DNA from: Candidatus Aenigmatarchaeota archaeon
GTDB lineage: Archaea; Aenigmatarchaeota; Aenigmatarchaeia; Aenigmatarchaeales; Aenigmatarchaeaceae
Assembly: GCA_043802485.1 (NCBI GenBank)
Contig: JAZDKZ010000007.1
Location: forward strand, 50,457-114,456
Length of the DNA: 64,000 nt
Direction: 5' to 3'
Of the stretch, positions 8,592 through 51,600 are shown in pieces; position 1 is the stretch's first letter; every line of letters begins with the position of its first letter. Made by a program: the position numbers and the translations under genes. The notes beneath the pieces are model-generated. The model ran no database searches. It was not told the origin of the DNA and saw nothing but the letters and a program-made list of their open reading frames with translations.

Positions 8592-8629
8592 AAAAGAAGT
8601 AGAGAAACCATAGCTTCTCCAAAAAAAGT

Positions 8630-9598: not shown

Positions 9599-9659
9599 TT
9601 GTTCACCTTTACTATGAAGAATTGTAAAGTTGATATTTATAATTTGTGGTAGAAGGCAA

Positions 9660-10595
9660 CTATCTGCCCTGGACTGTCACGGAAGCGGTCCTTTCGGTGT
9701 AGTAGCCATAGTCTACGGTGACATCAAACTGGAACGACTGGAAGGTTGATACATCAGTAGTGACGTCTATATCACAGACTATTGTCATGTCCCTTCCTGC
9801 TACCAGTTCCTGGTCATCCAGACTCTGGCATTCTGAATCCAGAGTCAAACCAGACCCAACATCTATGCTCACATCCACCCTGTTTATTTCTTCCATGGTT
9901 AATGTGACATCACTACTGTCACTACCATAGGGTATGGCACCTGGCGAATATATCGTACCTGACGCGAGGTTGTTTATTTTTATAAAAACAGTGAACGTGT
10001 TGCTTCCCTCATATACTATCAGGGGTGTGGGAGAGACTGAAATGCTTAGACCAACAGGACCCTTGGTATAAGTGAATGAAGGCGTGTACAACTGCCTTCC
10101 TGCTGCCCTTGCGGCATCAGCCTCAGACTCGGAATACACCCAAACGTTCCCGTTTGCGCTAGTAGAATAATCATGATAGACTCTTGCTATGAAAATGTCG
10201 TTTCTTGTCTGTCCTGGGTCCAAATCAGGCGCAGTCAGAGTTTCTGAGTACCTGTAAGTAGACGGTGGGACACCTCTCACAACGTCCTCAGCCCTCATTT
10301 CCTTGTCAAGGGTCTCGAAATCGGCCACCGAACCAAACCAGTCAACAAAGTTCGAACCTGTGACATATATCTTTGAACCACCGTCAGCAACGGTTGTTCC
10401 TCCGCGGTTTTCAATTTCCATGACAAGCCTGACAGAACTGCCACTGAATATGGATGTTGGCTCTGCCGTGAAGCTGATAATCTCCAGCCCGCTGCCGCCT
10501 GTTAAAGAACTACCGCCCAGATTTCCCATGTCAATGTCTACACAACCGGCTACAAGAAGCACTGATAAAACTGATAGCAAAATTTTTGATTTCAT
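9660..10595 (-). CDS. Lipoprotein-type surface protein, tandem paralog of 8630..9598
   Basis: MKSKILLSVLSVLLVAGC lipobox and the same domain layout; conserved C-terminal DQELVAGRDMTIVCDIDV. Confidence 0.5.
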   Translation of the reverse strand: MKSKILLSVLSVLLVAGCVDIDMGNLGGSSLTGGSGLEIISFTAEPTSIFSGSSVRLVMEIENRGGTTVADGGSKIYVTGSNFVDWFGSVADFETLDKEMRAEDVVRGVPPSTYRYSETLTAPDLDPGQTRNDIFIARVYHDYSTSANGNVWVYSESEADAARAAGRQLYTPSFTYTKGPVGLSISVSPTPLIVYEGSNTFTVFIKINNLASGTIYSPGAIPYGSDSSDVTLTMEEINRVDVSIDVGSGLTLDSECQSLDDQELVAGRDMTIVCDIDVTTDVSTFQSFQFDVTVDYGYYTERTASVTVQGR

Positions 10596-10656
10596 CTTTT
10601 CACTCTAAAATAAGATTATCAAATTGGTATTTATAATTTGCAGTAAACACACTACA

Positions 10657-11706
10657 TCATGTACTGCAACAACATTTGCCTTCATCTTGGCAATCAATTG
10701 CCATAAAATTGCAGGTTCCACCAGTACAATCTCCTGTATCGATACACCTACCTGTACTAAGTGTGAACATTTCAGAGCACAGTGTTCCTTCTTCAGTCCC
10801 AGTTTCTTCGCTAGAACCACCAGAAGTTTCAGTGACCAATCTGCTTGGTTTAACTTTTACAGTAACAGACTTGTCTATCATGTATGTGTATTCTGCGGTT
10901 ATGTTCATGGTCTCTATGCTTATGGGCTGGCCTATATTGTCAGTTGTAAAGTAGCAGGTCTTCCTCGGCGCCTTGTTGTTTATGAAGTTCAACTTGTCGC
11001 CACTGGAGCCACCAGCGCATGATGTAATTCGCATGTTTCCGGCACCATTGACTTGTATGCTGTTGTCGTTGTTGTAGACTGTCAGGAAGCCATCCCCAAC
11101 GTTGTAATAATCAATGTAAAAGCTGTATTCGCTAGTATCCGCTAAAAAGGGCTGCTTTTCAGGAAAGGTCAGCACTATGTTAAAGGGCGATTTCGAAGAG
11201 CTTTTCTGCACAGGAATGTTGTACAAAGTACCCTTTACCTGCCTCGACAAGTACTCGTCCTGGGACAGCACCACAATGTCATTATAGAGCGTTAAATCGC
11301 TCGTGAAAGTAGCACTTATCTTGATTTCACAGTCCTTCTCAAGGCGCGTATAACCTGTTTCCCATTCCCATCTCCAACTATCAGACTGATTAGGCTTCAG
11401 AGTACCGATATTTCTGACTGAAGCAGTTCTCTCAGAACCTTCATCAGTTATAAAAACGCAAGTGTCATAAGCCTTCACACTCAAACCCCTTATTTCAAAA
11501 GCATTGTTGTTTGTCACATCAATTATCAGATTCAATGTTCTGTATGGAACGACCTCGGTAGGTATTGTTTGAACATTAAAGTCAAGATACTGGACTTGGC
11601 TTAGACTCTGACCGCTGGGAAGCGACGGCAACGGCAGGTCAAATGGCATGCCAGCGCACATAGAAGTAAACAACAATAGCAACAGCAAAGCATAGAGATA
11701 CTTCAT
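10657..11706 (-). CDS. Secreted protein with CARDB-like domain and a C-terminal Cys-rich tail
   Basis: Sec-type signal peptide MKYLYALLLLLLFTSMCAG. Last 40 aa contain 10 Cys (CSEMFTLSTGRCIDTGDCTGGTCNFMAIDCQDEGKCCCST). Confidence 0.5.
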   Translation of the reverse strand: MKYLYALLLLLLFTSMCAGMPFDLPLPSLPSGQSLSQVQYLDFNVQTIPTEVVPYRTLNLIIDVTNNNAFEIRGLSVKAYDTCVFITDEGSERTASVRNIGTLKPNQSDSWRWEWETGYTRLEKDCEIKISATFTSDLTLYNDIVVLSQDEYLSRQVKGTLYNIPVQKSSSKSPFNIVLTFPEKQPFLADTSEYSFYIDYYNVGDGFLTVYNNDNSIQVNGAGNMRITSCAGGSSGDKLNFINNKAPRKTCYFTTDNIGQPISIETMNITAEYTYMIDKSVTVKVKPSRLVTETSGGSSEETGTEEGTLCSEMFTLSTGRCIDTGDCTGGTCNFMAIDCQDEGKCCCST

Positions 11707-11736
11707 AAAGAATAATTAGAGCCTATTAAAATAAGT

Positions 11737-12657
11737 TTATGCTGTCAACGGGTTGACATTCACGCTAACTTCCTTCAACACCTCGTACACATAACTGTGG
11801 AAATAGGCGTTCAAAAAGTACGTCTGCTCTATGTCCACTTTGTCCTCTCCTGGAACCATCAAGGAGCACTTTATTTTGTATGTCTTCTTCCCGACAAGCG
11901 GAATTGAATCAATGTTAGTATAATAACCAGCATAACCAGACGGCCCCATAGCTGCGCAATCACTTTCAATCACATCAAACCCACCAGGAATTCCGAGAAA
12001 AAGCTCTCCCTGAGCAACCTCATCAAAAAGACCACTGCCTTTGTTCTGAACTGTGATATAGACAGGCAGGATGCTTCCTGTCCTAATTGGCAAGGCAGCG
12101 CCCAGCTCCATGTATATCTTGATAGGTCCTCTGCCAACAGTCAGTGTCGGGATGAAGGTCGTGAACTCTCCTGCCTGCTGCAGCTGTGTGTACCTTTCAC
12201 TGCTAATCACATTCACCTCTATCTCAGACTCTGAAAAATAGCTATAGCTGACTTTGAACCTAACCGGACAAGCTGTCTTTATGTAGGCGATATCCTGACT
12301 TATAGGGGTCTTGAAGGTCCATTCGACGAATTCTACCTGGCCCGGAACAAAGGGATCAACGAATGTTCTACTTTTCAAACCTGTTATCGGGTCTCCGCAC
12401 AGACCAGCGTCCAGAACACGGTAACTGACATCATAAACAGGGTCATCTTCCTCGTAATTGACTATATTGAACGACAAAGAAAATTGGTCTCCTGCAATTA
12501 TGGGCGGTGCTGGGAGGACGTTAATATTCTCGACGCTTATCACATCCTCGGGCATCTCCTTCACTTCTTCCTTTTGCCCAAAGATGTTAAAGCCTGGCAG
12601 TCCCGTGCAACCCGAGACTAGCAAAACCAGAACCAAAAGCGCGATTATTTTTCTCAT
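11737..12657 (-). CDS. Lipoprotein-type surface protein
   Basis: MRKIIALLVLVLLVSGC lipobox; beta-rich extracytoplasmic domain with a CARDB-like segment PIIAGDQFSLSFNIVNYEEDD. Confidence 0.5.
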   Translation of the reverse strand: MRKIIALLVLVLLVSGCTGLPGFNIFGQKEEVKEMPEDVISVENINVLPAPPIIAGDQFSLSFNIVNYEEDDPVYDVSYRVLDAGLCGDPITGLKSRTFVDPFVPGQVEFVEWTFKTPISQDIAYIKTACPVRFKVSYSYFSESEIEVNVISSERYTQLQQAGEFTTFIPTLTVGRGPIKIYMELGAALPIRTGSILPVYITVQNKGSGLFDEVAQGELFLGIPGGFDVIESDCAAMGPSGYAGYYTNIDSIPLVGKKTYKIKCSLMVPGEDKVDIEQTYFLNAYFHSYVYEVLKEVSVNVNPLTA

Positions 12658-12688
12658 CTTATCATTCCTTTTTTGTTAGATTAAACCC

Positions 12689-15172
12689 TTATGTCCCAAA
12701 GGGGGCAATAGCAACCTGTATATTGACGTTCTTAGTGTCCATGTATTCGTACGAGGCCACGCCTGTTATCAGCCTTGTTATTATGCTTTGATCATCAAAA
12801 CCGTCGAGGTTAGGCTTTATTAAAAAGACCACGGTCCTGTATTCACCAGGACCTATCTGAGGTATTCTATTATCAATATCAGAAAAGTAAGTACATGTTA
12901 TTTCACCGCTACCAAATGTATCACCTTCTGTACAACCACTAAATGTAGACGCTTCTATTTCTATTGGTTGTTCATCATTGAGTATCTGTGGAACGTATAT
13001 TTTCAAATCATCTACAAAAGTTATGTTTCCCCTGCCTTCGTTCTTGAGAGAAACTCTTATCAAAGTCTCTTCACCATCCCTTATGGGCTGGCGCTGGCAG
13101 TATATGGTAGCCTTGACAGGACCGCCCGTGTACTCTGAAATCAGTTCCTCTAGCTTTATCTCCCTCGCCTGAAGCAATCTATAATATTCATTCAAAGGTA
13201 TGACATCAATCGGTATCGAGACATTGACATTGTAATTATAATTGTAAGACGCCCTGACCTTCACAGTTTCACCGGAATGAGCGTATACAGCTCCAGGTGA
13301 ACACGATGATGTAGGAGTGTCACAGTTCTCTGCATCAACAGGACAACAATAGCCAAGTTCTCCCCAACCATCTCTGCTGAATTTGAACGTAGCGAATTTT
13401 ATCTCAGTCGGATATATTACTCTGCCCCAATAACAAGAATCAGTTGATTCCACAGGACTACCAGAATCACTACTACAGGTAATCGGTTCCAAAGACCCTA
13501 CGGATGTTTCAGGTTCAACGTTTGAAGCAGTCGTTCTTTTCCAGAAGGCCTCAATGTCAAGATTGATATAGTCAGCATTAAATTCACCACTATTTTCAAG
13601 CTCAATATTACCAATCAAGGTCTCCTGATTAGGATCTAAAAGAGCGGAAAACAGCTCAAACCTACTTACCTCTATAGATCTCTTCGAACCTGTGGTTTTA
13701 CTCACAGACGCCTGCTTGTCCTGCTGCTGCTTTGCTATAGCTGCCTGAGGGTTTGTTATCATCAGCCAAGCGTCTGCCATTCCTGTCTGGGCCTGGAAGA
13801 GCATATCATCCAAAGGCACAAAAATACTTTCAGTAGCGCTCTGCACCTGAGGCCACCAGTAACCGAATATAGCCTGGCCGACGACTCCTGTATACGTGGT
13901 TGAGAAGATGAAAAGCGCTATCATTATCGTCATCACTCCCATGGCAGGCCTTGCCTCTGGACCAGCGCTTATCCCGACAAGCAGAGAAAGGGCGAAAATA
14001 AGATAAAACACAATATGAATCATGTCACCTAGATTTCCCCCGCCGGAGACAAAGAACCACATTGAAAGCATCATGCAAACCAAGAAAAAACCTCTGTCGA
14101 AAACTTTGAAAGCCCCGGAGTCTGTCATGCTCTTGTATTTCCCTACGACAACTGTAATTTTACTTTCATCCTTATCCCCCTCAACCTGTATGGGGAATGT
14201 GATGAAGAACGCGGCCCCCATCCAGCCCAGCGCACTGGCAATATTGTTCCCGCTTAATCCCATGCCGCCAAAAGTGAGGAAAAACAGATATGCCAGATAT
14301 GCACCAAAGCCCAACTTGGCCCATGCCTCTATAGCCTTGGCAGGCTGTGTGGTCTTGTAGCGTCCTGGCAGAGCAGTGAAATAGAAGAAGAACGCGATCA
14401 CCAGGGAGATTAAACGATTGAATGCGAAAGTTTGTGCTATTATAAGGATGTATGCGGTTATCTTGAAGGCAGATTTTGGTACTAGCAACCAGCCTCTTCC
14501 GGATACATCTCCTCCTTCTTTTATCGAACCTATGATGTCGTTTTGACTGGGGAATATGATATAGGCCGGGAAACAGAAAATAAACGCCATCCCTATCAAG
14601 GGGAACGAGGGCAAACCAAAAAGCGGCGTGCCGACCATGAAGAATACGCCTATCAGAATAGAGATAAAAATCTCATACAGCCTGGCATGGGCTCTTTTGC
14701 CAAAGTTTTCATGAAGAGGTGTGGTATCTTCTGGTGTTTCTTGCTTAGTACCTGCTTTATAGTATTCTATTTCCTGACCACTTTGAGTCCTTGTCAATGC
14801 ATGTCCTCTGACCTTGTTTTTCCAGTGTTTCATGCTCTTATTGGCTCTTATCAAAGCGACCCTGTCCCCACTTGCTCTAGCAGCATCAATATCAAACTGA
14901 ATTTTTTTCATTTGTTCATTTGCTCTATGTAGAATTCCGCCTTGTCTAGCCTTTCTAACAGCGGTGTTGAAATCCATGCCATTAGCTCTGTACTCATAGA
15001 ACCTTTGACTCATATACTGGTGCATTTCCGAGCCTTTAGCAGCCATTCTCTCGATGTGGGTAAGCATCTTTTGATATTTTTCCCTGCCTTCAAGCTTTTC
15101 TAGACTCTTATCTCCTTTAAGCCATCTCTTGCCTTTTGTTGCTCTTCTCTTTGCCCAGTCCTTTACACCCAT
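12689..15172 (-). CDS. Large membrane protein (827 aa): about 170-aa basic cytoplasmic N-domain, about 8-10 TM helices, about 330-aa extracytoplasmic Cys-containing C-domain
   Basis: Hydropathy by eye: TM block from about aa 170 to 480. The C-terminal domain has paired Cys residues and beta-rich repeats similar to the neighbouring secreted proteins. No AglB WWDYG motif, so not an oligosaccharyltransferase. Confidence 0.5.
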   Translation of the reverse strand: MGVKDWAKRRATKGKRWLKGDKSLEKLEGREKYQKMLTHIERMAAKGSEMHQYMSQRFYEYRANGMDFNTAVRKARQGGILHRANEQMKKIQFDIDAARASGDRVALIRANKSMKHWKNKVRGHALTRTQSGQEIEYYKAGTKQETPEDTTPLHENFGKRAHARLYEIFISILIGVFFMVGTPLFGLPSFPLIGMAFIFCFPAYIIFPSQNDIIGSIKEGGDVSGRGWLLVPKSAFKITAYILIIAQTFAFNRLISLVIAFFFYFTALPGRYKTTQPAKAIEAWAKLGFGAYLAYLFFLTFGGMGLSGNNIASALGWMGAAFFITFPIQVEGDKDESKITVVVGKYKSMTDSGAFKVFDRGFFLVCMMLSMWFFVSGGGNLGDMIHIVFYLIFALSLLVGISAGPEARPAMGVMTIMIALFIFSTTYTGVVGQAIFGYWWPQVQSATESIFVPLDDMLFQAQTGMADAWLMITNPQAAIAKQQQDKQASVSKTTGSKRSIEVSRFELFSALLDPNQETLIGNIELENSGEFNADYINLDIEAFWKRTTASNVEPETSVGSLEPITCSSDSGSPVESTDSCYWGRVIYPTEIKFATFKFSRDGWGELGYCCPVDAENCDTPTSSCSPGAVYAHSGETVKVRASYNYNYNVNVSIPIDVIPLNEYYRLLQAREIKLEELISEYTGGPVKATIYCQRQPIRDGEETLIRVSLKNEGRGNITFVDDLKIYVPQILNDEQPIEIEASTFSGCTEGDTFGSGEITCTYFSDIDNRIPQIGPGEYRTVVFLIKPNLDGFDDQSIITRLITGVASYEYMDTKNVNIQVAIAPFGT

Positions 15173-15231
15173 AAAATCATTCTCTCTTTCTCTATAGATA
15201 TTTCAGAAGCCGTAGATAAAACTTTTGGTGT

Positions 15232-16476
15232 CTAATCGTCTAGAGTCTCTTCAAGCTCTTCTTCTCCTAACTGCTCTTCTTGGTCTTCTTCAAGCTGCTC
15301 TGCTTCAACATCACCGATAGCATTCTCCAGCTCCTTCTCGTCTTCCTTCTCGAACTGCTCATATTCCTTGTTCAACTCGGCTGTTGCTGCTTCAATATCT
15401 CTTTCTTCCTCTCTTTTGAACTGCTCTTCCTCCTCTTTTGTCAGTTCATTTCCCCTTCCATAATCTTCATAGCCAGCTTCCTTAGCAGCATTTTTTAAAA
15501 AATTACCACTTTGCTCCAAAACGTCTTTTCTTTTTGTTCTCAGATCCGACATATATTTTATATAAGAACTTTCTTCTTTTGTTAGAATTTTATTGTCTCC
15601 TTTTTTTCTTAAAAAAATACGCCTTTCTATAGGAAATTTTTGCTTTGTACCTGGACCGTAATTGAATTCTTTTCCAAAAAGTTCAAATGTCACATGAACT
15701 TGATTTACATTATCAGGACTACGAATTACAAAACAAGCTTCTGACGGTTTATCATAAAAAGACTGTGTTTGACTACCCCATCCCAATTGTCTTCCTTTAC
15801 TGTCAAAAATTATATCTGTTAATTCTTTCCTTGTTTTAGGGTGTTCATAGCCATATTTATCAGCTAAATAGCATGCAAGTTCGAAACAGTTATCATCTGT
15901 TTGATAGTAACGTTTTATTTGTTTTTCAAAAACAACATGTCCTTGATTTTTTAATTCTTTACCTATTTGTTCTGCATTCTCTTTCCTTTTAGAAAATTCG
16001 TTCCCTCTGCCATAACCTTCATAATCGGCCTCTTTGGCTTGTCTATCGAAGAATTTTTTAACAAAATCAAAAGTATTGCCTTTTTTATTATTCTCTGTTT
16101 TTTTGCGTCTTGGAAAGGAACCACTCTTATCTTTCAAAAGCGAACCCAAAGGAATAAACTTATCTTCAGCTTCCCTTTCCTTCATTGTCTTTTCTACAAG
16201 TCTCCTGAAATCTGGAAAATCTGAACTTAAAGAGGTTTTAGTATCTGAAAAATCTGAACCAGCAAAACCCCTTGGTATTACGAAAGACTTGTCCATAATC
16301 TTTAGAAAGGTCCTCAACTCATCTTCGCTCAAGGTTTTCAGATAAGAAGACTGTATAGATTCGTGTCTTTCAAACATAATGTTATTCAACTTTTCAAGTT
16401 TTCTAGGCTCAAAACTTCTTATAAGGTCTTCTCGGCTTTCTTCTTTATTTTTTCTAAACCTATTAAACAATCCCAT
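15232..16476 (-). CDS. Cytoplasmic acidic protein with an internal duplicated motif (A/E)(D)YEGYGRGNE and a poly-Glu/Asp C-terminal tail
   Basis: Repeat EADYEGYGRGNEFSKRKE / EAGYEDYGRGNELTKEEE; C-terminal 60 aa are over 50% D/E. First gene-proximal partner of the surface operon. Confidence 0.45.
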   Translation of the reverse strand: MGLFNRFRKNKEESREDLIRSFEPRKLEKLNNIMFERHESIQSSYLKTLSEDELRTFLKIMDKSFVIPRGFAGSDFSDTKTSLSSDFPDFRRLVEKTMKEREAEDKFIPLGSLLKDKSGSFPRRKKTENNKKGNTFDFVKKFFDRQAKEADYEGYGRGNEFSKRKENAEQIGKELKNQGHVVFEKQIKRYYQTDDNCFELACYLADKYGYEHPKTRKELTDIIFDSKGRQLGWGSQTQSFYDKPSEACFVIRSPDNVNQVHVTFELFGKEFNYGPGTKQKFPIERRIFLRKKGDNKILTKEESSYIKYMSDLRTKRKDVLEQSGNFLKNAAKEAGYEDYGRGNELTKEEEEQFKREEERDIEAATAELNKEYEQFEKEDEKELENAIGDVEAEQLEEDQEEQLGEEELEETLDD

Positions 16477-16506
16477 GGTTTAGATTTGTTAAAGTCAGCA
16501 TATAAA

Positions 16507-17286
16507 TTATCCAAAGAACAAAACAACCTGGGCAGACGTGATGTTATACGTCGTGTCAACCTCTGTCGACAAATCCAGCTTATTGGTGCCTACTTTCAGA
16601 GTGTCAATGGCAAAGTCAGTATACACGGGCGTCCAGCCAGAATATATCTCCACTCCATTTATCATGACATTAATATTGCCCTTGCCATCTCTAGTACCGA
16701 ATATGAGCAGCCTTGCCCTGCTCAGGCTCTCTGCCTCATGCTCGGTCACTTCAAAGTCAAAGGACTGGGTCTTCTTGCTCTCATAATTGACAGAAACATC
16801 CATGTCCAGTATGTAGACGGTCGGCGCCCACATCTTCCAGCCGGAGCTCTCGGCAACAACCTTGATGTTATTGTTGCTCTCAATGATAGAACCATCAAGA
16901 CTTATCGTCTTCTCCCCTATGCCAGGCGCTCCCTTGTAGACCTGCTCGTCGTTCACATAGACGAACAGGTTACCGTAATAGTTGGAGTTCCATATCTTCA
17001 TCTTCAGAACGCCCTCTGTGACATCCCCGGCATTGTCGACATCAAAATCCTTCATCTGCTCTAGATGTGAGAACAATCCGTTGTTGACCTCGCCGCCAAA
17101 AGACAGTATATCCTCATGCCCGACATTGTAGGAGACAGTAAAGTCCATGCCCAACATCTCTGTCCTGCTTGATTGGGATATGCCTGTACTTCCGGCTGCA
17201 AAAAAGTCGAAACCACCACCGAAGGCCAGCAGCAGCACTATGAGTCCCAACACTGCTGCTACCAGAACAGGAATAAAGTCAGGCAT
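16507..17286 (-). CDS. N-terminally membrane-anchored extracytoplasmic beta-rich protein; first gene of the surface operon
   Basis: MPDFIPVLVAAVLGLIVLLLAFGGG signal-anchor, then a 230-aa Asn/Gly/Val-rich domain. Confidence 0.45.
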   Translation of the reverse strand: MPDFIPVLVAAVLGLIVLLLAFGGGFDFFAAGSTGISQSSRTEMLGMDFTVSYNVGHEDILSFGGEVNNGLFSHLEQMKDFDVDNAGDVTEGVLKMKIWNSNYYGNLFVYVNDEQVYKGAPGIGEKTISLDGSIIESNNNIKVVAESSGWKMWAPTVYILDMDVSVNYESKKTQSFDFEVTEHEAESLSRARLLIFGTRDGKGNINVMINGVEIYSGWTPVYTDFAIDTLKVGTNKLDLSTEVDTTYNITSAQVVLFFG

Positions 17287-19020: not shown

Positions 19021-19123
19021 TGGACCGGAGGGGACTCGAACCCCTAACCTCTTATGGCCCTGAAGGGTTTCCATTTTGGTTTAGATTGCCAAGGAAGCGA
19101 TCTTCCAGTTGATCTACCGGCCC
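19021..19123 (-). tRNA. tRNA-Ala(GGC) with two putative introns (about 13 nt at 19073..19085 after the anticodon loop; about 17 nt at 19052..19068 inside the 3' strand of the anticodon stem)
   Basis: Reverse complement: GGGCCGG-TA-GATC-AACTGGAA-GATC-G-CTTCC-TTGGCAA-[TCTAAACCAAAAT]-GGAA-[ACCCTTCAGGGCCATAA]-G-AGGTT-AGGGG-TTCGAGT-CCCCT-CCGGTCC-A. G3:U70 Ala identity pair is present. The spliced product is nearly identical to Methanocaldococcus-type tRNA-Ala (GUAGAUCA..GAUCGCUUCCUU.GCAAGGAAGAGG). Confidence 0.55.
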
Positions 19124-19390: not shown

Positions 19391-19530
19391 GTGGGCGAGG
19401 GGAGATTCGAATTCGGTAGCTCTCATCCACAAGAGCTTCTCCCGACCTCCAGTTTCTACAGAACACAGCCAACAAAAAGGACTGACGTCCTCTTATAAGA
19501 CTGGCGCTCTGCCAGGCTAAGCTACCCGCC
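19391..19530 (-). tRNA. tRNA-Ile(UAU) with two introns (39 nt canonical at about 19454..19492; 27 nt between T-stem and T-loop at about 19411..19437)
   Basis: Reverse complement: GGGCGGG-TA-GCTT-AGCCTGGCA-GAGC-G-CCAGT-CTTATA-[39 nt]-A-ACTGG-AGGTC-GGGAG-[AAGCTCTTGTGGATGAGAGCTACCGAA]-TTCGAAT-CTCCC-CTCGCCC-A. Anticodon loop CTTATAA fits the CTNNNAA pattern. Mature length 74. Confidence 0.5.
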
Positions 19531-19557
19531 CGTTAAGGATTTATTTTGTCTTCAGCA

Positions 19558-23670: not shown

Positions 23671-23732
23671 TCCCCCGTTTCTTTTCATTTTTTTCTTAAA
23701 CATTTATATATCGGTTCATTAAAACTATCTTT

Positions 23733-24227
23733 ATGCCAGACGAACGTTCTGACGAATCTTACGAAATCATACCAGTCACTCCATTGAAGAGGATGGAGAA
23801 GAGATTGGATGCGATTGAGAGTTCTAGCGCTGTTCCGCAGCTGCAATCGCTGATTAACCAGATAATAGAGCTCATAAGGAGCAACCAGAAGATTGTTAAC
23901 GATGTTATTCAAGCAAACGTCGAATTAAGGAACGCACTTTCCAAGATGCCTTCAAAGATTGACGAGATGACAAGCACGATGAAAAGCTTCATCTCTTTGA
24001 TAGAGACTGCTGGCAAGGAAGAGATGTCGACTCCAGGCCCTGAGCTGATGAGGCCTGTGACAGATGAACTAAAGAAGATGGTTGACCAGAACCAGAAGAT
24101 ACTTGAGACCAACCAGTCCATGATAGACAAGCTAGATATTCTGGGCAGAAAGGCGAGGAGAGGAACGCCTGTCTCAGAGTTGCTGTCGTCCTACCCGAGC
24201 GTCAGGATGAAAAGGGACAGACAATGA
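23733..24227 (+). CDS. Coiled-coil hypothetical protein, first gene of the pilus locus
   Basis: 164 aa, heptad-rich, no TM. Confidence 0.4.
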   Translation: MPDERSDESYEIIPVTPLKRMEKRLDAIESSSAVPQLQSLINQIIELIRSNQKIVNDVIQANVELRNALSKMPSKIDEMTSTMKSFISLIETAGKEEMSTPGPELMRPVTDELKKMVDQNQKILETNQSMIDKLDILGRKARRGTPVSELLSSYPSVRMKRDRQ

Positions 24228-24311
24228 CAGTCTAATGATAACAGAAGAATTATATACTGGAAATACCAAACACATTTATATAAGGAAGTCGAAGAATAAA
24301 GAGGTGAAAAA

Positions 24312-24719
24312 ATGAAGGGAGTAAGCGCAGTAATTGCAGTTATTTTGATTTTAATGATAGTTGTTGCTATGGCTGCATTGGCTTATACCTGGTTCACATC
24401 AATGACTACAGACCTCATGACAAGCACGGGCCAGAGCATAAATAAAACAACAACACAGATGGCAAAGGGCTTTTCCATATCATCTGCTGGCTGCAACGCC
24501 GGTGCTCTGCAGTTTGCCATAGTAAACACTGGTACAGGTGTGTTGCAGGCTGATCAGGTCGAAGCGTCTTTGGACGGCTTGGATGCTAGCACAAGCAACC
24601 CAGGCGGAACAATACCAGAAGGTGGTTCCCAGGTTTACACGGGCGGTTCTTGTGTCGGCGGTGAGACTCTGAGAGTAGTCATAGAATCTGGTTTAGCAAT
24701 GACAAAAACTGTAGAGTAA
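24312..24719 (+). CDS. Archaeal type IV pilin-like protein (class III signal peptide)
   Basis: MKG|VSAVIAVILILMIVVAMAALAY: short basic leader, G at -1, about 20-aa hydrophobic stretch (prepilin peptidase PibD/FlaK-type site). SD GAGGTG upstream. Confidence 0.6.
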   Translation: MKGVSAVIAVILILMIVVAMAALAYTWFTSMTTDLMTSTGQSINKTTTQMAKGFSISSAGCNAGALQFAIVNTGTGVLQADQVEASLDGLDASTSNPGGTIPEGGSQVYTGGSCVGGETLRVVIESGLAMTKTVE

Positions 24720-24802
24720 ATGACCTAGCAACAAGAGACTAGACTTTTTTTATTATTTTTATAATTTTATTTCTTTTTTATTCAATCTATATATTCTGGG
24801 GA

Positions 24803-25318
24803 ATGAATTTATCTATAATGAAGGGCCAGGCAGAGGTAATAGTCTTCATTCTTCTGTTTCTAATAGGCATAAGCCTTTTCGCGTCAGCTACAATATGGGG
24901 CAGGAAGATTTTCGAGGATAACATGGACTTCACAAAGCTGGAGGCCGCTGAAAAGATTATGATTGACATTGACAATGGAGTGTCCAACGTAATAAAGTTC
25001 GGAGGCATTAAGGAAATAGCGTATCCTCTAGACGGGACCGTAGAGATAGTAGACACTAAAACCATAGAAATCAGGACGCCACTGAAAATAGAAATACAGG
25101 AAGAATGGATAAACATCTCTGAAGGGAATTCCTATATCAGGGAAAAGAAGGACGGCGACGACCTTGTTCTACAACTAATCTATCCTGACGGCGACTACAT
25201 AGTAGAATTCTTCACTGACGGTTCAAGCCTTGACAGTCCCAACTACATAAAGCTGGAAAAGAACGAGACGTTCACCAATCCGACGTCTAGGATTAAAATA
25301 AAAATAACCTTTATGTAA
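24803..25318 (+). CDS. Pilin-like protein (class III signal)
   Basis: MNLSIMKG|QAEVIVFILLFLIGISLFA. Confidence 0.5.
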   Translation: MNLSIMKGQAEVIVFILLFLIGISLFASATIWGRKIFEDNMDFTKLEAAEKIMIDIDNGVSNVIKFGGIKEIAYPLDGTVEIVDTKTIEIRTPLKIEIQEEWINISEGNSYIREKKDGDDLVLQLIYPDGDYIVEFFTDGSSLDSPNYIKLEKNETFTNPTSRIKIKITFM

Positions 25319-25327
25319 TTATCTCTT

Positions 25328-25750
25328 ATGAAAGGTCAGTATCTGACGCTAGAGTACGTCATATTCTTCGTTATCGGCTTAATACTAATCGTCTCAGTCT
25401 ATCACATATTCTCTGACCTTAATCTAGAATACGAGAAGCATACCACAGAGTACCAGCTCAGAATGACAGGCCATATGATAATGGGGACGGTAATAAGGGT
25501 GTTTGAGACATCGGAGCACACCAACACCAAGATAAGCTACGACCTGAAGATACCTGAAAGGCTTTCAAACTGCATATATTCCGTGACCCTTGCCGGCGGT
25601 CGTCTGAGACTTGACTGCGTAGAAGGCATAGACCTCGGGGTTGATTTAACATCGTACAACTTTAATATTGAAATAAAAAATAATATAATATACAGCAGCA
25701 ATGGCTTGATTCATGTAGCTGCTGAAAACGGAGAGATTGATTTAGAATGA
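25328..25750 (+). CDS. Pilin-like protein (class III signal)
   Basis: MKG|QYLTLEYVIFFVIGLILIV. Confidence 0.5.
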   Translation: MKGQYLTLEYVIFFVIGLILIVSVYHIFSDLNLEYEKHTTEYQLRMTGHMIMGTVIRVFETSEHTNTKISYDLKIPERLSNCIYSVTLAGGRLRLDCVEGIDLGVDLTSYNFNIEIKNNIIYSSNGLIHVAAENGEIDLE

Positions 25751-27498
25751 GTGTCAAACTTAGAAGGCCTGTGAAGAGAGTAAACCTTTACAAAGTCTTC
25801 ACAAAAGCTGTCATCGGCTACAAGGAATTGGAAAGTCAGAGAAGAAATGAAAGGTCTGGAATTCCCCAAGGTTACATTCCCTACCCATTTCCGGCACCGA
25901 GCCTCAAAGTAGAGAAAATGGAAGTGGAAAAGCTTGAAGAAAAGGAAAAGAAATCCTCTATACTAGAAATGGGGTCCACTATAAGGATGAGGGAACCTGA
26001 AATGGACCTAAAGTCTATAAACATCGTTTACACTCTGATACCTTCAAACGACAAGACGCCGTTCGCAAGCGCCAACATAAAGTGGAGCAGAAGGGAATCA
26101 GGCCTTGTATATTATCTCATCGAGCCTGTTCTTTCCGACGAAGAGAAGAAGCTGCTAAACAACATAAAACTGGCATTGGTAGAGAAGCTTGACGTGGACT
26201 TTAAGACCCTGAGAAAGGATGATGCAAAGTCCTTCCTGGCGAAAAAGTTTGAGGACACGATAAACCTTATGGCAGCTGAGCTGCCATATCAAAAGAGACA
26301 GGCTCTTTTCTATTATGTGCAGAGGGATTTTGTCGGGATGGACAAGATAGAGCCGATGATGCAGGACCCGAACATAGAGGACATATCATGCGACGGTGTC
26401 GGCATACCTATTTACATATTCCACAGGAACCCGCTGATAGGAAGCATAAGGACGAACGTGGTCTTTGAGGACTGGGATGAACTGGACACGTTCGTGAGCA
26501 AGATGGCGCAAAGATGCGGCAAAAACATTTCGATCGCAACCCCCATGATAGGAGGCAGCCTGCCAGACGGTTCTAGAGTTCAAGCCACGCTTGGAACAGA
26601 CATAGCAAGAAGGGGAAGCAACTTTACGATAAGGAAGTTCACAAAGAAGCCCCTGACACCAGTCAACCTGATAAATTTCAAGTCAATGGACCCCAAAATC
26701 GCGGCCTACCTCTGGTTGGCGATAGAATATGGAAGGTCTGTTCTTGTAAGCGGCGGAGTGGCAACAGGAAAGACAACCATACTCAACGCCATGTCCTTGT
26801 TCATAAAACCTGAATTGAAGATAGTGTCGATAGAAGACACTGCGGAACTTGTACTGCCGCACCCTCACTGGGTGCCTGGCGTTGCAAGAACAGCGATAAC
26901 AGAGGTTGCAGGCAAGAAAATCGGAGAAGTGGACCTGTTCGACCTGCTGCGAGAGTCGATGAGGCAGAGACCAGACTACCTCATAGTAGGAGAAGTCAGA
27001 GGAAGGGAAGCATACGTATTGTTCCAGCAGATAGCAACAGGCCACCCAAGCATGTCCACCATACACGCGGACTCCATGGAAAGGCTGGTAGACAGGCTGA
27101 CAACGCCGCCAATCAACCTTCCGGCTTCTCTGATAGAAACATTGGACATAGTAGTGTTCATTGTTAAGATGAAATACGGCCAGACCTATGTAAGAAGGAT
27201 AAAGAGCATATACGAGGTTCTAGGCTTTGACAGGGAGAAGAACGTACCCTTAGTAAACGAGGTCTATAGTTGGGACCCTCTCAGCGACACGTACAAAAAA
27301 GTCAACAAATCAAACGTGATAGAGAAAATAAGCCTGCAGTTCGGCATAGCAAAGAGCTCCCTTGATATGGAGATAGCGAACAGGACCAAGATAATGCAGT
27401 GGATGGTCGAGAACAAGGTGGATGACTACATAGATGTGGCAAAGATAATCAAGCTCTACTACACGAGAAAGCAGGACCTACTAGACGAGATCGGATGA
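25747..27498 (+). CDS. Type II/IV secretion-family ATPase (FlaI/TadA/CpaF-like) for archaeal type IV pilus assembly
   Basis: Walker A VSGGVATGKTT, Walker B/Asp box DYLIVGEVRGREA, His box ATGHPSMSTIHADS; 583 aa. Overlaps upstream and downstream genes by 4 nt. Confidence 0.85.
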   Translation: MSVKLRRPVKRVNLYKVFTKAVIGYKELESQRRNERSGIPQGYIPYPFPAPSLKVEKMEVEKLEEKEKKSSILEMGSTIRMREPEMDLKSINIVYTLIPSNDKTPFASANIKWSRRESGLVYYLIEPVLSDEEKKLLNNIKLALVEKLDVDFKTLRKDDAKSFLAKKFEDTINLMAAELPYQKRQALFYYVQRDFVGMDKIEPMMQDPNIEDISCDGVGIPIYIFHRNPLIGSIRTNVVFEDWDELDTFVSKMAQRCGKNISIATPMIGGSLPDGSRVQATLGTDIARRGSNFTIRKFTKKPLTPVNLINFKSMDPKIAAYLWLAIEYGRSVLVSGGVATGKTTILNAMSLFIKPELKIVSIEDTAELVLPHPHWVPGVARTAITEVAGKKIGEVDLFDLLRESMRQRPDYLIVGEVRGREAYVLFQQIATGHPSMSTIHADSMERLVDRLTTPPINLPASLIETLDIVVFIVKMKYGQTYVRRIKSIYEVLGFDREKNVPLVNEVYSWDPLSDTYKKVNKSNVIEKISLQFGIAKSSLDMEIANRTKIMQWMVENKVDDYIDVAKIIKLYYTRKQDLLDEIG

Positions 27499-27502
27499 TA
27501 AG

Positions 27503-28375
27503 ATGGACCTATGGCAGACACTCAAGCAGCTATCCTTCAAGTTCTTTGGAAGAAGTCTAGAACCCTTTATCAATTATTTTGACAGCATAAAGCCTGACCT
27601 GATAAGAGCAAACATCGGCCTGAGCCTCCAGGAATACGTATACATAATGTTCTTTGTGATACTTGCCACATTCATTGTGGAGTTCCCGTTCATAGTCATA
27701 ATAACATCGCTTCTGCTCCGTGACGCAATAAATGCTTTCCTGCTATCATTCACACTTACTGTGGTCATACTGATAGTCCAGTTCTTTATTTTCTATACTT
27801 ATCCCAGCATGGTTGCTGGAAGGAGAAAAAAGAACATAGACTCGTCTCTGTCTTTTGCGACAACGTACATGGCGACTGTGGCCGCGTCAGGTGCCCCTCC
27901 CATCACAATGTTCAAGGTGATGGCAGAATTCAAGGACTATGGCGAGATATCACAGGAAATGGGCAAGATATACAGGGATGTTGAAGCTTTCGGGATGGAG
28001 CTTGTAGAGGCAATAAGGAAAACGGCAAGCAGGACGCCTTCTGAGGAGCTGAAAGAATTGTTGTGGGGCCTGGAGACAACACTGTCAAGCGGAGGGAACG
28101 TCGGAGACTTTCTGCACGAGAAATCAAGACTCTTCATAGCAGAGTACAGAAGAAGGCTGGAAAAGTATTCAAATACACTGTCGATGCTAATAGAAGTTTA
28201 TCTTACTGTTGTGCTCATCGGTTCCATTTTTTTCATAATCATGACAGCGCTCATGTCAATCATAGGAGGAAGTTCGGGCACGTTCATGATGTTTTTGCAG
28301 TTCGCAGTAATTTTCCTAGTGCTGCCATTCGTTTCAATAGGGTTCATTTTATTGGTTAAGACGATATCGCCTTAA
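27503..28375 (+). CDS. Pilus platform membrane protein, TadB/FlaJ N-terminal-half-like (T2SS-F domain)
   Basis: Polytopic membrane protein with the cytoplasmic helical T2SSF-like domain (SLSFATTYMATVAASGAPPITMFKVMA...) immediately after the ATPase gene. Confidence 0.6.
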   Translation: MDLWQTLKQLSFKFFGRSLEPFINYFDSIKPDLIRANIGLSLQEYVYIMFFVILATFIVEFPFIVIITSLLLRDAINAFLLSFTLTVVILIVQFFIFYTYPSMVAGRRKKNIDSSLSFATTYMATVAASGAPPITMFKVMAEFKDYGEISQEMGKIYRDVEAFGMELVEAIRKTASRTPSEELKELLWGLETTLSSGGNVGDFLHEKSRLFIAEYRRRLEKYSNTLSMLIEVYLTVVLIGSIFFIIMTALMSIIGGSSGTFMMFLQFAVIFLVLPFVSIGFILLVKTISP

Positions 28376-28377
28376 GC

Positions 28378-29364
28378 GTGAGAAAGATGAAAAAGAAAAG
28401 CGACAAAAAGTTCGATGTCAAGGAAATCGTGTCAAACATAAAGCCGACGCAGATACCGTTCATAGTGGCCGGCTTTATCATACTTCTAGGGCTGGCTTTC
28501 TACCAGAACGTCGGTGTGATGTGGAACCTGATTGTGCTGGGCATAATAATCGCAGTGGCGCCCTACGCTCTCATAACCTATTTCGAGTATGCAAAGATCA
28601 AAGCGATAGAAGACCAGCTGCCAATATTCCTGCTAGACCTAGCCGAATCGCAAAAGGTCGGCCTAACTCTGCACGAGTCCCTGAAGCAGGCATCCAAAGT
28701 GGACTATGGCAAGCTGTCGCCCGAGATAAAGAAGGTCTACCACCAGCTTTCGTGGGGCATAAGGGTGCAGGACGTGTTCGAAAACTTTTCAAAGAGGATG
28801 AAAAAATCAAAGCTGATATCAAGAGTAGTGAGCATAATCAACGAGACGTATATTTCTGGGGGCGACATCGGAAGGACAATGGAATCCACTGCCTCTGACA
28901 TAACAGCCATAAACGAGGCTGAGAAGGAAAGAAGGTCGGTGACATCACAGCACACTTTCATCATGTACGCGATATACTTCATCTTCATAGGGATAGTCGT
29001 GGGCCTATCCCAAACGCTAATACCTCTCCTCAGCATCGGAGCTGAAGGGCAGGCGGCAGGAGGCATTGGAGGCATATTCTCTTTCGAGGACCCATGCATA
29101 CAGTGCGAGGGCTCCAACGATATACTCTGCATAAACTGCCCTATCTTCTCTGTAGTATGCCAGATGCTGGACCTTGAGTCTGGAGGAACTTGCTACTACA
29201 ATGCCCTGTTCGTTCTGATGGCAGTGGTCCAGGGCATATTCTCGGGCCTGGTCGCAGGACAGATAGGGGAAGGCTCTGTATCAGCCGGCTTGAAGCACAG
29301 CCTGATAATGACAATATGCGGCTTCAGTGCTTTGGTGATACTGCTGAAATTCGGGTTTATGTGA
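28378..29364 (+). CDS. Pilus platform membrane protein, TadC/FlaJ C-terminal-half-like, with a 6-Cys inserted loop
   Basis: Second T2SSF-like domain (IPIFLLDLAESQKVGLTLHESLKQASK...). Unusual Cys cluster EDPCIQCEGSNDILCINCPIFSVVCQ in a predicted loop. Confidence 0.6.
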   Translation: MRKMKKKSDKKFDVKEIVSNIKPTQIPFIVAGFIILLGLAFYQNVGVMWNLIVLGIIIAVAPYALITYFEYAKIKAIEDQLPIFLLDLAESQKVGLTLHESLKQASKVDYGKLSPEIKKVYHQLSWGIRVQDVFENFSKRMKKSKLISRVVSIINETYISGGDIGRTMESTASDITAINEAEKERRSVTSQHTFIMYAIYFIFIGIVVGLSQTLIPLLSIGAEGQAAGGIGGIFSFEDPCIQCEGSNDILCINCPIFSVVCQMLDLESGGTCYYNALFVLMAVVQGIFSGLVAGQIGEGSVSAGLKHSLIMTICGFSALVILLKFGFM

Positions 29365-29368
29365 TGTT

Positions 29369-29788
29369 ATGAAAGGCCAAATGAGAATCGAGTTCATTGC
29401 AGGGATATTGATATTCGTCATAATAATAGTCTTCATTGTCAACCAGACCAACATAACTTTCTCAAACCTCCTGACCGATTCTAGGGCAGACATACTGAAA
29501 GCAAAGGCTTTGAACTCGATAACAATACTCACGGAGGACGTAGGAAACGATAGGATCGGTCTGGCAACAGCGCCGCTGGAACTTTCGATGGTAAAGATAA
29601 ACAATCTTGATGCAAACTGCCAACTGCTGGAAGACTTTGAACTGGGATCATACAGGCTAAAGATTTACAATTCCACAAGCATGATACTTTTCTGTGGCTA
29701 CGAAATGTCATCGCCGCCAAGGTCGATAGAAACCAGGTACGTAAAAATAGGGAACGATTATGGAAACGTAACATTGGAGTTGTGGTAA
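29369..29788 (+). CDS. Pilin-like protein (class III signal)
   Basis: MKG|QMRIEFIAGILIFVIIIVFIV. Confidence 0.5.
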   Translation: MKGQMRIEFIAGILIFVIIIVFIVNQTNITFSNLLTDSRADILKAKALNSITILTEDVGNDRIGLATAPLELSMVKINNLDANCQLLEDFELGSYRLKIYNSTSMILFCGYEMSSPPRSIETRYVKIGNDYGNVTLELW

Positions 29789-30913
29789 ATGAAAGGCTTT
29801 GTATACCTGCTGGAGATAGCCGTGACGTCCATACTCATAGTGGTGATACTAAGCACGTTCTTCGGGATAAGAGTGAAGCAGAACTGGGACACCTCTGACT
29901 TGATAGGCGTAGGCAACAACATAATAAACTACCTAGACAAGGACGAAAGCTTCTTCCTGAAAGTTCTTGAAAAGAATTTCACCTACATCGAAAGCACAAA
30001 GCCTGCCAACATAGGCTACGGTGTTAAGGTAAGGGGCTCCCCAAAAACAGAGATAATCGTTGGATGCACGCAGTCTCCTCTCTACCAATACACAGAAAGC
30101 ATTCTTACTCCCGCATATGTCAACAACAGGTTCATCACATTCATTATGGAGGATTATGACATAAGGAATGACATACCAAACCATCTTGACGCCATTGTCC
30201 TTATCAACTTTACAAACTATACGATAGAGAAGGATAAGATACTGAAATATCTTGACGAGGGCGGTGTTGTCATCGGGATAAATGCAACCAATGTAAACAA
30301 CAACGCTGATTTCAACGAAATATTCGGTCTATCATCTCCGGGATTCCCGAGCGGTGCGAACACATTCGTTCCATATAATCCTTCAAAAGAGGATGTGGAA
30401 AAGTACTTTATGGGAATAGGCTTCGATGTTACGGATGAATGGTACATATGGGAAGAGCGATGGACAGTCACATATGGTTCAAATTACATAAATGTATCAA
30501 AGGGTGGCGAGGAAAGAAACTTCCTGAATAAAGGAGAAACGTTTGACTTGAACGGCCACACGTTCAAGGTGAACAGAATAGGTTCTGGAGAAGCCAACAT
30601 CCAAGCTACCAGAACAGGATTCATCTTTGAAGATTTTTCTGATTTAAATGATGTGCAGGGCAATAAGATAGTGGGACCTGGAAGCGCAGCATCAATGGCG
30701 TCCAACGGGAAGGCGATATGGATATCTGACTTTCCCTGGAGCGACGAGTACAGAACCCTGGTAAAGTCTGCCATAATCTCGAGAAACGACGAGTGGACTG
30801 CCAGAGGAGTTTACACGACAAGGGAAACCACGACAGTTTCATCGTTCTTTTCCCTTTGCTGCGACATGACCGAGGTCTCGGAACTAGAGTTAACATTGTG
30901 GTATGTGGTATGA
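29789..30913 (+). CDS. Large pilin-like or pilus-associated protein (class III signal + 340-aa extracellular domain)
   Basis: MKG|FVYLLEIAVTSILIVVILSTFFG; several NxT/S sequons. Confidence 0.5.
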   Translation: MKGFVYLLEIAVTSILIVVILSTFFGIRVKQNWDTSDLIGVGNNIINYLDKDESFFLKVLEKNFTYIESTKPANIGYGVKVRGSPKTEIIVGCTQSPLYQYTESILTPAYVNNRFITFIMEDYDIRNDIPNHLDAIVLINFTNYTIEKDKILKYLDEGGVVIGINATNVNNNADFNEIFGLSSPGFPSGANTFVPYNPSKEDVEKYFMGIGFDVTDEWYIWEERWTVTYGSNYINVSKGGEERNFLNKGETFDLNGHTFKVNRIGSGEANIQATRTGFIFEDFSDLNDVQGNKIVGPGSAASMASNGKAIWISDFPWSDEYRTLVKSAIISRNDEWTARGVYTTRETTTVSSFFSLCCDMTEVSELELTLWYVV

Positions 30914-38778: not shown

Positions 38779-39327
38779 ATGCCCAAGAAAACAGTCAAAG
38801 CAGAACTGCAGGACAACAGAGCTGTGATATGGAACAGGGACGATGCCAACCGTCTATTCAATGAAGGCTGGTATGGCGAACTGTTCGATGACCGCTTGGA
38901 GCTTTCTCTTGTCGAAGCAACCTTCCTTCTAGATAAGGATAAGATCGATATCAAGAAGGACGGGAAGAAGGTCATGCTCAAGAGCATATACAAGCATGCC
39001 CAGAAGATAGACCCTAGATTTGTCATACGCTACACTGTCTACAAGGACATGAGGGAAAGGGGCCTGCCTGTGAGGACAGGCTTCAAGTTCGGCTGCGATT
39101 TTCGAGTATACGAGAGGGGCGTCGCTCCTGTGAAGAAGGGGCCGAAAGCGCCGCACGAGCACACGAAATGGATAGTGTTCTGCGTGCCAGAGGATTACGC
39201 ATGCTCCTTCCAGGAGCTGTCAAGAGCTGTTCGGCTTGCCCATAACATAAGGTCCAGCATGCTCTGGGCCATAGTCGACAACGAGAATGATGTTACCTAT
39301 TACAACATCAATTACCTTAGCCCGTGA
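38779..39327 (+). CDS. endA: tRNA-splicing endonuclease (EndA), short homo-oligomeric-type subunit (182 aa)
   Basis: N-domain AVIWNRDDANRLFNEGWYGEL...LELSLVEATFLL and catalytic C-domain GFKFGCDFRVYERG...HEHTKWIVFCV (Tyr/His/Lys triad region) match archaeal EndA. Confidence 0.7.
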   Translation: MPKKTVKAELQDNRAVIWNRDDANRLFNEGWYGELFDDRLELSLVEATFLLDKDKIDIKKDGKKVMLKSIYKHAQKIDPRFVIRYTVYKDMRERGLPVRTGFKFGCDFRVYERGVAPVKKGPKAPHEHTKWIVFCVPEDYACSFQELSRAVRLAHNIRSSMLWAIVDNENDVTYYNINYLSP

Positions 39328-51492: not shown

Positions 51493-51600
51493 CGCTTCCG
51501 ACGGGATTTGAACCCGCGACCCCTTGATTTCTTCATCTTGAATCAGATCTTCTAAGTTATTTAGAAGTCAAGTGCTCTATCCAAACTGAGCTACGGAAGC
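51493..51600 (-). tRNA. tRNA-Arg(UCU) with a 33-nt canonical intron (about 51529..51561)
   Basis: Reverse complement: GCTTCCG-TA-GCTC-AGTTTGGATA-GAGC-A-CTTGA-CTTCTA-[33 nt]-A-TCAAG-GGGTC-GCGGG-TTCAAAT-CCCGT-CGGAAGC-G. The intron contains a second copy of TCAAG, so an alternative two-intron parse exists. Confidence 0.6.

Follow-up and report, generated by a model that had tools for sequence, protein, structure and literature searches.

A syntenic nine-gene cluster of Aenigmatarchaeota probably encodes an adhesive type IV pilus with a two-gene platform

The window analysed here is a 64-kb stretch of contig JAZDKZ010000007.1 from a Candidatus Aenigmatarchaeota archaeon, and its positions 23733-30913 are filled exactly by nine co-directional open reading frames (ORFs) on the + strand. 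In our reading, with a probability of roughly 0.78, this region encodes the assembly machinery and the filament subunits of an adhesive type IV pilus that does not serve motility, of the clade-2 kind (AfGspE-like or PilB3-PilC3-like) known from Euryarchaeota and Nanoarchaeota. Gene positions and order agree with those listed in the first-pass annotation of this DNA: a coiled-coil protein (ORF1), three pilin-like proteins (ORF2, ORF3 and ORF4), an assembly ATPase (ORF5), two membrane proteins with a T2SSF domain (ORF6 and ORF7) and two further pilin-like proteins (ORF8 and ORF9).

ORF5 (25747..27498, + strand) encodes a 583-amino-acid (aa) AfGspE-like assembly ATPase of the VirB11/PilB family. 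It matches the T2SSE domain (PF00437) with 102 bits against a cut-off of 24.9 and contains a Walker A motif (GVATGKTT), a Walker B motif (DYLIVGEVRG) and the His box. Its best match in the PDB is AfGspE (382 bits), ahead of FlaI (276 bits) and the Tad ATPase CpaF (151 bits). AfGspE (AF0659) groups with Nanoarchaeota ATPases in clade 2 (Fig. S4 of Makarova 2016, PMC4858521), and clade 2 is the sister of the archaellum clade in the same work. This sister relationship would explain why ORF5 also scores moderately high on the FlaI model.

That score bears on one rival explanation, a reduced archaellum, that is, a motility filament of the sort annotated as FlaI, FlaJ and FlaG in Aenigmarchaeota metagenome-assembled genomes (MAGs). 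The archaellum shares with the cluster a homologous ATPase, a platform and subunits with class III signals. FlaI and ArlJ are the best-scoring NCBIfam models, JGI calls homologues 'flagellar protein FlaJ', and FlaG, FlaI and FlaJ are present in most Aenigmarchaeota MAGs (Li 2021, PMC8407114). On the archaellin domain PF01917 (cut-off 29.5), the ORF2 orthologue in a related locus (L005, one of six introduced below) also comes close with 26.3 bits; ORF2 itself obtains 17.2 bits, and both stay below the cut-off. Against the archaellum, ORF5 obtains 418 bits on the FlaI model NF058587, whose equivalog cut-off is 550. In a calibration of this model, S. acidocaldarius FlaI scored 634 although truncated and Archaeoglobus AfGspE 430, a level shared by ORF5 at 417 over the same span. 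Neither ArlH (KaiC-like), ArlF, ArlG, ArlCDE nor ArlX was found among the cluster genes, in the flanks or among some 45 window ORFs that were scanned; the ArlF model yields 20.7 bits, with a cut-off of 110, and does so on the N-terminal helix of ORF2 only. The neighbours are thermosome, MscL and MscS genes upstream and NMD3, aIF1A, KH and TopoVI genes downstream, so the earlier statement that FlaH, FlaF and FlaG are missing also holds just outside the cluster. The archaellum platform, moreover, is normally one polypeptide, and here there are two. On the calibrated scores and the lack of accessory genes among the window ORFs scanned, the archaellum was ruled out as highly improbable, and the first-pass call of a pilus stands.

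The Aap, Ups and bindosome (Bas) systems of Sulfolobales belong to the same superfamily, and weak matches to UpsA, UpsB, UpsF, BasC, BasE and BasF are seen. These systems, however, have a single full-length platform gene, and the scores here fall far under the cut-offs (BasE 194 of 1000 bits, BasF 47 of 1300, UpsF 41 of 400 and UpsA 37 of 130).

The platform of the Aenigmatarchaeota cluster is encoded by two adjacent genes. ORF6 (27503..28375, + strand; 290 aa), TadC-like in the terms of Denise 2019, has a T2SSF domain (66 bits) and five hydrophobic segments and aligns to positions 5-248 of 555 in the ArlJ/FlaJ models. ORF7 (28387..29364, + strand, with an alternative GTG start at 28378; 325 aa), TadB-like, has a T2SSF domain of 54 bits and aligns to positions 278-451 of 555 and 190-387 of 465. 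ORF6 and ORF7 are therefore the N- and C-halves of a platform protein that normally has two domains. ORF6 is 65-92% identical across the relatives, and ORF7 is identical to a 325-aa NCBI protein of an Aenigmatarchaeota MAG. An AlphaFold2 (AF2) model of ORF7 reaches a predicted local distance difference test score (pLDDT) of 83, and its cytoplasmic domain resembles EpsF, OutF, PilC and TcpE with probabilities of 0.97-1.00 (1.00 for EpsF and PilC).

The split is real. It occurs in all six related loci, where the halves are separate ORFs 2-4 nucleotides (nt) apart. An exhaustive search covered 1.84 billion representatives; among the 150 50%-identity representatives closest to ORF7, 132 were half-size, and the first full-size protein appeared at rank 83. 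Since six loci and 132 of 150 representatives share it, a frameshift or assembly artefact is ruled out. The first-pass annotation was thus right that there are two T2SSF genes but wrong to regard this as exceptional for archaea. Two tadC-like genes were already reported for clades 1 and 4B and for many loci of clade 2 (Makarova 2016, PMC4858521), and the fission of an Epd-like archaeal platform has been placed at the ancestry of TadB/TadC, with TadC as the N-half and TadB as the C-half (Denise 2019, PMC6668835).

The two-gene platform raises the alternative of an Epd-like or Tad-like system (clade 1 of Makarova, 'Epd-like' of Denise), which in archaea is the sister of the Tad pili of bacteria. 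Two adjacent one-domain T2SSF genes, N-half (TadC) first and C-half (TadB) second, are likewise seen for the Epd pili of Methanococcus maripaludis and for Tad/Flp pili (Denise 2019, PMC6668835), and DUF2341, a clade-1 signature, is found in the ORF8 orthologue of L003. Yet ORF5 is far nearer to AfGspE and FlaI than to CpaF in the PDB comparison, and on the TadA model it obtains 160 bits where the cut-off is 373. The candidate major pilin has 135 aa, twice the length of a typical Epd or Flp pilin (~70 aa). The locus contains no EppA-type or other dedicated peptidase, no FleN/TadZ-like gene and no secretin, and the archaeal MinD gene of the window lies 20 kb away. A pair of tadC genes is also present at many loci of clade 2 (Makarova 2016, PMC4858521). 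We consider a system of the Epd or Tad type very improbable.

A clade-2 pilus fits the cluster better in several respects. With the loci of this clade (AfGspE/AF0659, the PilB3-PilC3 and PilB4 loci of Haloferax, and those of Nanoarchaeota) it has in common an ATPase closest to AfGspE with a weak PilB3_C domain, pilin genes clustered with the ATPase and platform genes, and the two tadC-like genes found in many of them. It also has a minor pilin that is large and variable and whose role may resemble that of arCOG02911, with no homology implied, and a MinD/FleN gene standing alone elsewhere. It differs in its host, since Aenigmatarchaeota lie outside the Makarova 2016 census, in the lack of an S-layer-like gene in this locus, and in three features that we did not find described: the conserved coiled-coil ORF1, the novel domain combination of ORF9 and a putatively Cys-bridged extracellular loop in the C-half platform protein. 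The system follows a known plan and is probably an ordinary archaeal adhesive pilus with some lineage-specific parts, the split platform being already documented.

Conservation among relatives argues that the cluster is part of the core genome. The ORF5 ATPase has matches in two Aenigmatarchaeota MAGs of the genome collection (82% and 63% identity), and two more lineages were reached through distant homologues of ORF7 (64% and 57% identity). The six loci compared (L001-L006) represent these four further lineages. All nine genes are syntenic in them, in the shared order thermosome, coiled-coil and pilin genes, ORF3, ORF4, ATPase, T2SSF, T2SSF, ORF8, ORF9, NMD3, aIF1A, KH and TopoVI. Identities are 57-92% for the machine proteins and 36-78% for the pilin-like proteins; TopoVI-B, taken for comparison, gives 64-89%. 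The shared order and the similarity of the machine identities to those of TopoVI-B thus mark the cluster as an intact, vertically inherited core-genome locus of Aenigmatarchaeota, a DPANN group. Like ORF7, the ORF1 and ORF9 proteins are identical to NCBI entries of an Aenigmatarchaeota MAG, and the thermosome, TopoVI and presumed intron-bearing tRNAs of the window are in keeping with an archaeon.

The subunits are recognised chiefly by their N-termini. ORF2, ORF3, ORF4, ORF8 and ORF9 all start with MKG followed by a hydrophobic helix of 20 residues, a class III-type signal, as the first-pass annotation had proposed. Four of the five fit a FlaFind-style expression and ORF4 a looser one only. 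When all six frames of the 64 kb were scanned for the pattern M-x(0-12)-[KR][GA] with a hydrophobic 20-mer, these five genes and two obvious false positives were the sole matches. The clustering of class III signatures is not due to chance. Short pilins like those of Flp and Epd systems were also sought in the six-frame scan of the window; none was seen, and no class III ORF was shorter than ORF2. In the pilin part of two relatives there is an additional ORF of 67-70 aa (L003 3279-3491; L005 3714-3917) that has no counterpart in the window; the 70-aa product in L003 is very hydrophobic, with apparently two transmembrane (TM) segments and no class III signal.

ORF2 (24312..24719, + strand; MKG/VSAVIAV...) is the 135-aa candidate major pilin. 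It passes the NCBIfam model of the archaellin/type IV pilin N-terminal domain (TIGR02537; 25.3 bits, cut-off 20), whereas matches to UpsA, Pilin_N and Arch_flagellin are all sub-threshold. Weak PDB matches fall on its N-terminal helix (8fk7 'Flagellin', Iho670 and an archaeal adhesion filament core). A promoter-like box, a Shine-Dalgarno-like site and T-runs of its own, together with paralogues in relatives (three in the L003 locus), make ORF2 the best candidate for the major subunit.

The other small subunits have weaker family ties. ORF3 (24818..25318, + strand; 166 aa, MKG/QAEVIV...) fits the class III pattern if translation begins at ATG 24818. The longest ORF begins at 24803, and the orthologues start with MKGQ in agreement with ATG 24818, on which the MKG start depends. 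ORF3 matches DUF7289 weakly (17 bits, cut-off 27). ORF4 (25328..25750, + strand; 140 aa, MKG/QYLTLEY...) is assigned to Pfam DUF7266 through an orthologue: it scores 17.5 bits itself, below the cut-off of 27.6, and its L005 orthologue scores 35.5 bits, above it.

ORF8 (29369..29788, + strand; 139 aa, MKG/QMRIEF..., Glu at +5) has a class III-type pattern and no family match in Pfam or NCBIfam. In L003 its orthologue (8924-10336) keeps both ends but has grown to 470 aa by insertion of a DUF2341 module (77.5 bits), and this insertion suggests that ORF8 is exposed at the surface. DUF2341 has been likened to PilY1-type tip adhesins (Makarova 2016, PMC4858521). Proteins with a Laminin_G_3 domain are encoded a few genes downstream in relatives (L003 13842-14654; L004 9551-10636). 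The relatives thus appear to show modular gain of adhesin-like domains, by DUF2341 within the ORF8 orthologue and by the Laminin_G_3 proteins nearby.

ORF9 (29789..30913, + strand; 374 aa, MKG/FVYLLE...) is the large pilin-like protein and a candidate tip or adhesin subunit. It has no Pfam domain and 79 homologues, most of them unnamed; those that carry a name come almost entirely from Aenigmatarchaeota MAGs. Its AF2 model is confident (pLDDT 90, predicted template-modelling score 0.85) and shows an N-terminal helix (residues 2-26), an alpha/beta domain and a beta-sandwich. C357 and C358 are invariant and C93 nearly so. Foldseek returned only weak matches, to folds like those of class I glutamine amidotransferases (best E 4.8e-4, TM-score 0.2-0.3) and also to flavodoxin-like folds; an enzyme function was not adopted, because at such TM-scores the matches are too weak.

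ORF1 (23733..24227, + strand) is predicted to be a 164-aa cytoplasmic coiled-coil protein. Its heptad score of 0.90 exceeds that of shuffled sequences (0.55 +/- 0.09; none of 300 shuffles reached 0.90) and it has no TM segment, in keeping with the earlier claim of a coiled coil. Matches in Pfam and NCBIfam are sub-threshold only. There are 138 homologues of 160-179 aa, the majority unnamed, and almost every named one is from an Aenigmatarchaeota MAG. The gene is syntenic and its product 53-90% identical in L001-L003, L005 and L006. In L003 it sits between pilin genes, which links it to the pilus system. We infer that ORF1 is a lineage-specific accessory component.

We propose the following mechanism for the pilus. 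A PibD/FlaK-type peptidase encoded elsewhere would cut the three-residue leader (MKG/) off five membrane-inserted subunits; this processing is assumed, since the scan of the 64 kb brought up no prepilin peptidase. By homology, a hexamer of ORF5 would dock on the T2SSF domains recognised in the heteromeric ORF6/ORF7 platform, and ATP-driven movements would raise pilins from the membrane into the filament. ORF2 would be the major subunit, and ORF3, ORF4, ORF8 and ORF9 a priming or tip complex. The exposed adhesive parts would be the large ORF9 and, in some relatives, the DUF2341-bearing ORF8, and ORF1 would serve as a conserved cytoplasmic coiled-coil accessory protein. The pilus would attach the cell to a host cell or a surface. 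Attachment is taken as the most likely role because all the relatives examined keep the locus in synteny and because it lies among housekeeping genes in a reduced genome.

A core locus among housekeeping genes in a reduced genome would also suit a type IV machine that is not adhesive. The five subunits could form a short pseudopilus that works as a piston or fibre in the uptake of DNA or other macromolecules, or in secretion across the envelope, and so feeds a metabolically dependent DPANN cell, in the manner of bacterial Com systems, the type II secretion system (T2SS) or the pili of episymbionts of the candidate phyla radiation. One major and four minor pilin-like genes recall the pseudopilin sets of T2SS and Com, and the window encodes a homologue of staphylococcal nuclease (SNase; 54701-55135, + strand; 144 aa, 77 bits) whose N-terminus has a hydrophobic segment, although nothing ties this gene to the cluster. 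Genes of the ComEC-like, DNA-binding or secretin-like kinds, however, are absent from the cluster and its neighbourhood. Archaea are described as lacking PilT-type retraction ATPases (Makarova 2016, PMC4858521), and a single ATPase is present here. The DUF2341 adhesin-like modules of the relatives, for their part, favour adhesion. Uptake or secretion is in our view unlikely. The SNase homologue in its own right may be a nuclease that an archaeon dependent on a host anchors in its membrane or secretes.

Several points weigh against an adhesive clade-2 pilus. The PilB3_C domain of ORF5 is weak (16.6 bits, cut-off 27), and the assignment of this ATPase to clade 2 (AfGspE/PilB3), made by score comparisons, is well supported but provisional. 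Most pilin family matches in the window are likewise below cut-off; pilus islands with unrecognisable pilins have been described in DPANN genomes (Makarova et al. 2019). The FlaG, FlaI and FlaJ genes of Aenigmarchaeota MAGs have been read in the literature as a partial archaellum (Li 2021, PMC8407114). The major pilin, the tip complex, adhesion and host attachment are all assigned by inference. We know of no Aenigmatarchaeota filament that has been imaged so far. In L002 (JBDRJK010000001, 8001-9789) the ATPase gene is broken at the Walker A motif into overlapping ORFs (8001-9104 and 9040-9789), which reflects either an assembly frameshift or a pseudogene and a sign that the system can be lost.

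The processing enzyme belongs to the same side of the balance. No prepilin peptidase of the Peptidase_A24 type was found among the multi-TM ORFs scanned in the 64-kb window, and 'complete', the word used for the locus in the first-pass annotation, is therefore too strong. The genes of prepilin peptidases often lie apart from those of the pilus. A 5-TM ORF at 4812-5477 was considered as a candidate and set aside because it has no family match; other polytopic ORFs of the window are a rhomboid protein, an MFS transporter and an 827-aa protein of no assigned function. An archaeal MinD (50460-51224, - strand; TIGR01969 264 bits, above cut-off) is encoded 20 kb from the cluster with no link to it, and FtsZ at 57339-58418 (+ strand). 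A partnership with archaeal pili has been proposed for ATPases of the MinD/FleN type, whose genes are expected to stand alone (Makarova 2016, PMC4858521).

The platform also carries a Cys-rich loop, in ORF7. TM helices are predicted at about residues 21-39, 48-66, 190-208, 273-291 and 302-320, with the T2SSF domain between TM2 and TM3. The TM3-TM4 loop comprises 64 residues, with no Lys or Arg and seven Asp or Glu, and is placed outside the cell because the T2SSF domain must face the ATPase. Its Cys-rich part (29095..29193, + strand; predicted extracellular) holds C237, C240, C248, C251, C258 and C269. The first-pass annotation had pointed out a 6-Cys loop; the loop exists, but the string quoted for it holds five Cys, the sixth being C269 shortly after it, and the loop is not peculiar to this window. 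The motif C-x2-C-x7-C-x2-C-x6-C-x10-C occurs in 115 of the 120 closest ORF7 homologues, with four Cys invariant and two nearly so.

Cys parity was counted in 120 half-size ORF7 representatives. Long loops of 50-103 aa are found in 38 of them and always have an even number of Cys (two in 17, four in 14, six in 6 and eight in 1). The remaining 82 have short loops of ~30 aa, 81 with no Cys and one with a single Cys. The even counts, the frequent two-Cys versions and the extracellular position favour disulfide pairs over a zinc site, and so point to disulfide bonding of the Cys in the ORF7 loop. A zinc-ribbon reading of the CxxC...CxxC pattern formed by the four invariant Cys was rejected as unlikely, given the extracytoplasmic topology and charge, the even counts and the common two-Cys loops; metal binding by the loop is the less likely alternative. 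In the AF2 model the Cys-rich part has moderate pLDDT values of 67-84, and the preceding residues 222-230 are below 50.

From topology and Cys parity, the loop would be a disulfide-held extracellular mini-domain on the platform's outer face, at the point of filament emergence, and it might act there as a rigid collar at the exit. No description of Cys loops in ArlJ, FlaJ or TadC was found in the searchable literature, and a lineage-specific Cys-bridged outer loop on the platform may be a new feature. A bolder reading, speculative and in our judgement rather doubtful, takes the loop for a structured extracellular mini-domain knotted by disulfides. This insertion of 50-100 aa, which has 2, 4, 6 or 8 Cys and is lacking in more distant platform proteins, would form a DPANN-specific adaptation of the pilus machine together with the lineage-specific ORF9 tip protein and ORF1. 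It could then serve as a collar or gate on the outside where the filament leaves, or as an element for host contact or sensing. If true, no platform protein of a type IV filament would have been described before with a functional extracellular domain. In any case the even-Cys loop is a small, testable structural curiosity relevant to the mechanics of type IV filaments.

Attachment to host cells is the presumed way of life of DPANN archaea. To our knowledge, there is no experimental information on how Aenigmatarchaeota attach. A core, syntenic and intact pilus locus in a streamlined genome makes the cluster an obvious candidate attachment organelle, and ORF2 and ORF9 are concrete targets for studying attachment in this group. 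The analysis also corrects the common labelling of such genes as 'FlaI/FlaJ, partial archaellum'.

The genes of the cluster are tightly packed. From ORF1 to ORF9 the junctions are +84, +83, +9, -4, +4, +2, +4 and 0 nt, so that just one internal junction overlaps; the first-pass annotation had, wrongly, overlaps of 1-4 nt at nearly all junctions. At the 3' end the stop codon of ORF9 and the start codon of NMD3 overlap by 4 nt (ATGA, 30910-30913). The same ATGA overlap is present in L003, and L001 has an overlap of 16 nt. The pilus operon may therefore continue into the ribosome and translation-factor genes.

Candidate transcription signals were read from the DNA. The exact 11-mer ACATTTATATA occurs only twice in the window, in each case about 22-30 nt before a start codon: at 23700..23710 (+ strand), 22 nt 5' of the ORF1 ATG, and at 24272..24282 (+ strand), 29 nt 5' of the ORF2 ATG. 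It also precedes the ORF1 orthologue of L001. The pair may be a shared TATA/BRE-like element, with a putative promoter role at both sites. A Shine-Dalgarno-like GAGGTGA (24301-24307, + strand) lies between the second copy and the ORF2 ATG. After ORF2 comes a T-rich stretch with runs of 6-7 T and then a TATA-like CTATATAT (24745..24796, + strand), which sits 23-30 nt before ATG 24818 of ORF3; oligo-T termination after ORF2 and a leaderless start of ORF3 are suggested by this arrangement. A scan for sigma-70 promoters and terminators was set aside as uninformative for an archaeon.

Two further features of the window lie outside the pilus cluster. A seven-gene run on the - strand (8630-17286) has no Pfam or NCBIfam match among those scanned. 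It includes four lipobox-type proteins (…LVAGC…), of which those at 8630-9598 and 9660-10595 are paralogues with 42-44% identity, as well as the 827-aa protein, which has six TM segments, and two proteins of 414 and 259 aa. The run has the look of an uncharacterised cluster with a surface or transport function. Rfam identifies tRNAs of 103-140 nt that ARAGORN does not call, at 19021-19123, 19392-19531 and 51493-51600 (- strand). These are presumably intron-bearing archaeal tRNAs, and a tRNA-splicing endonuclease gene is located at 38779-39327.

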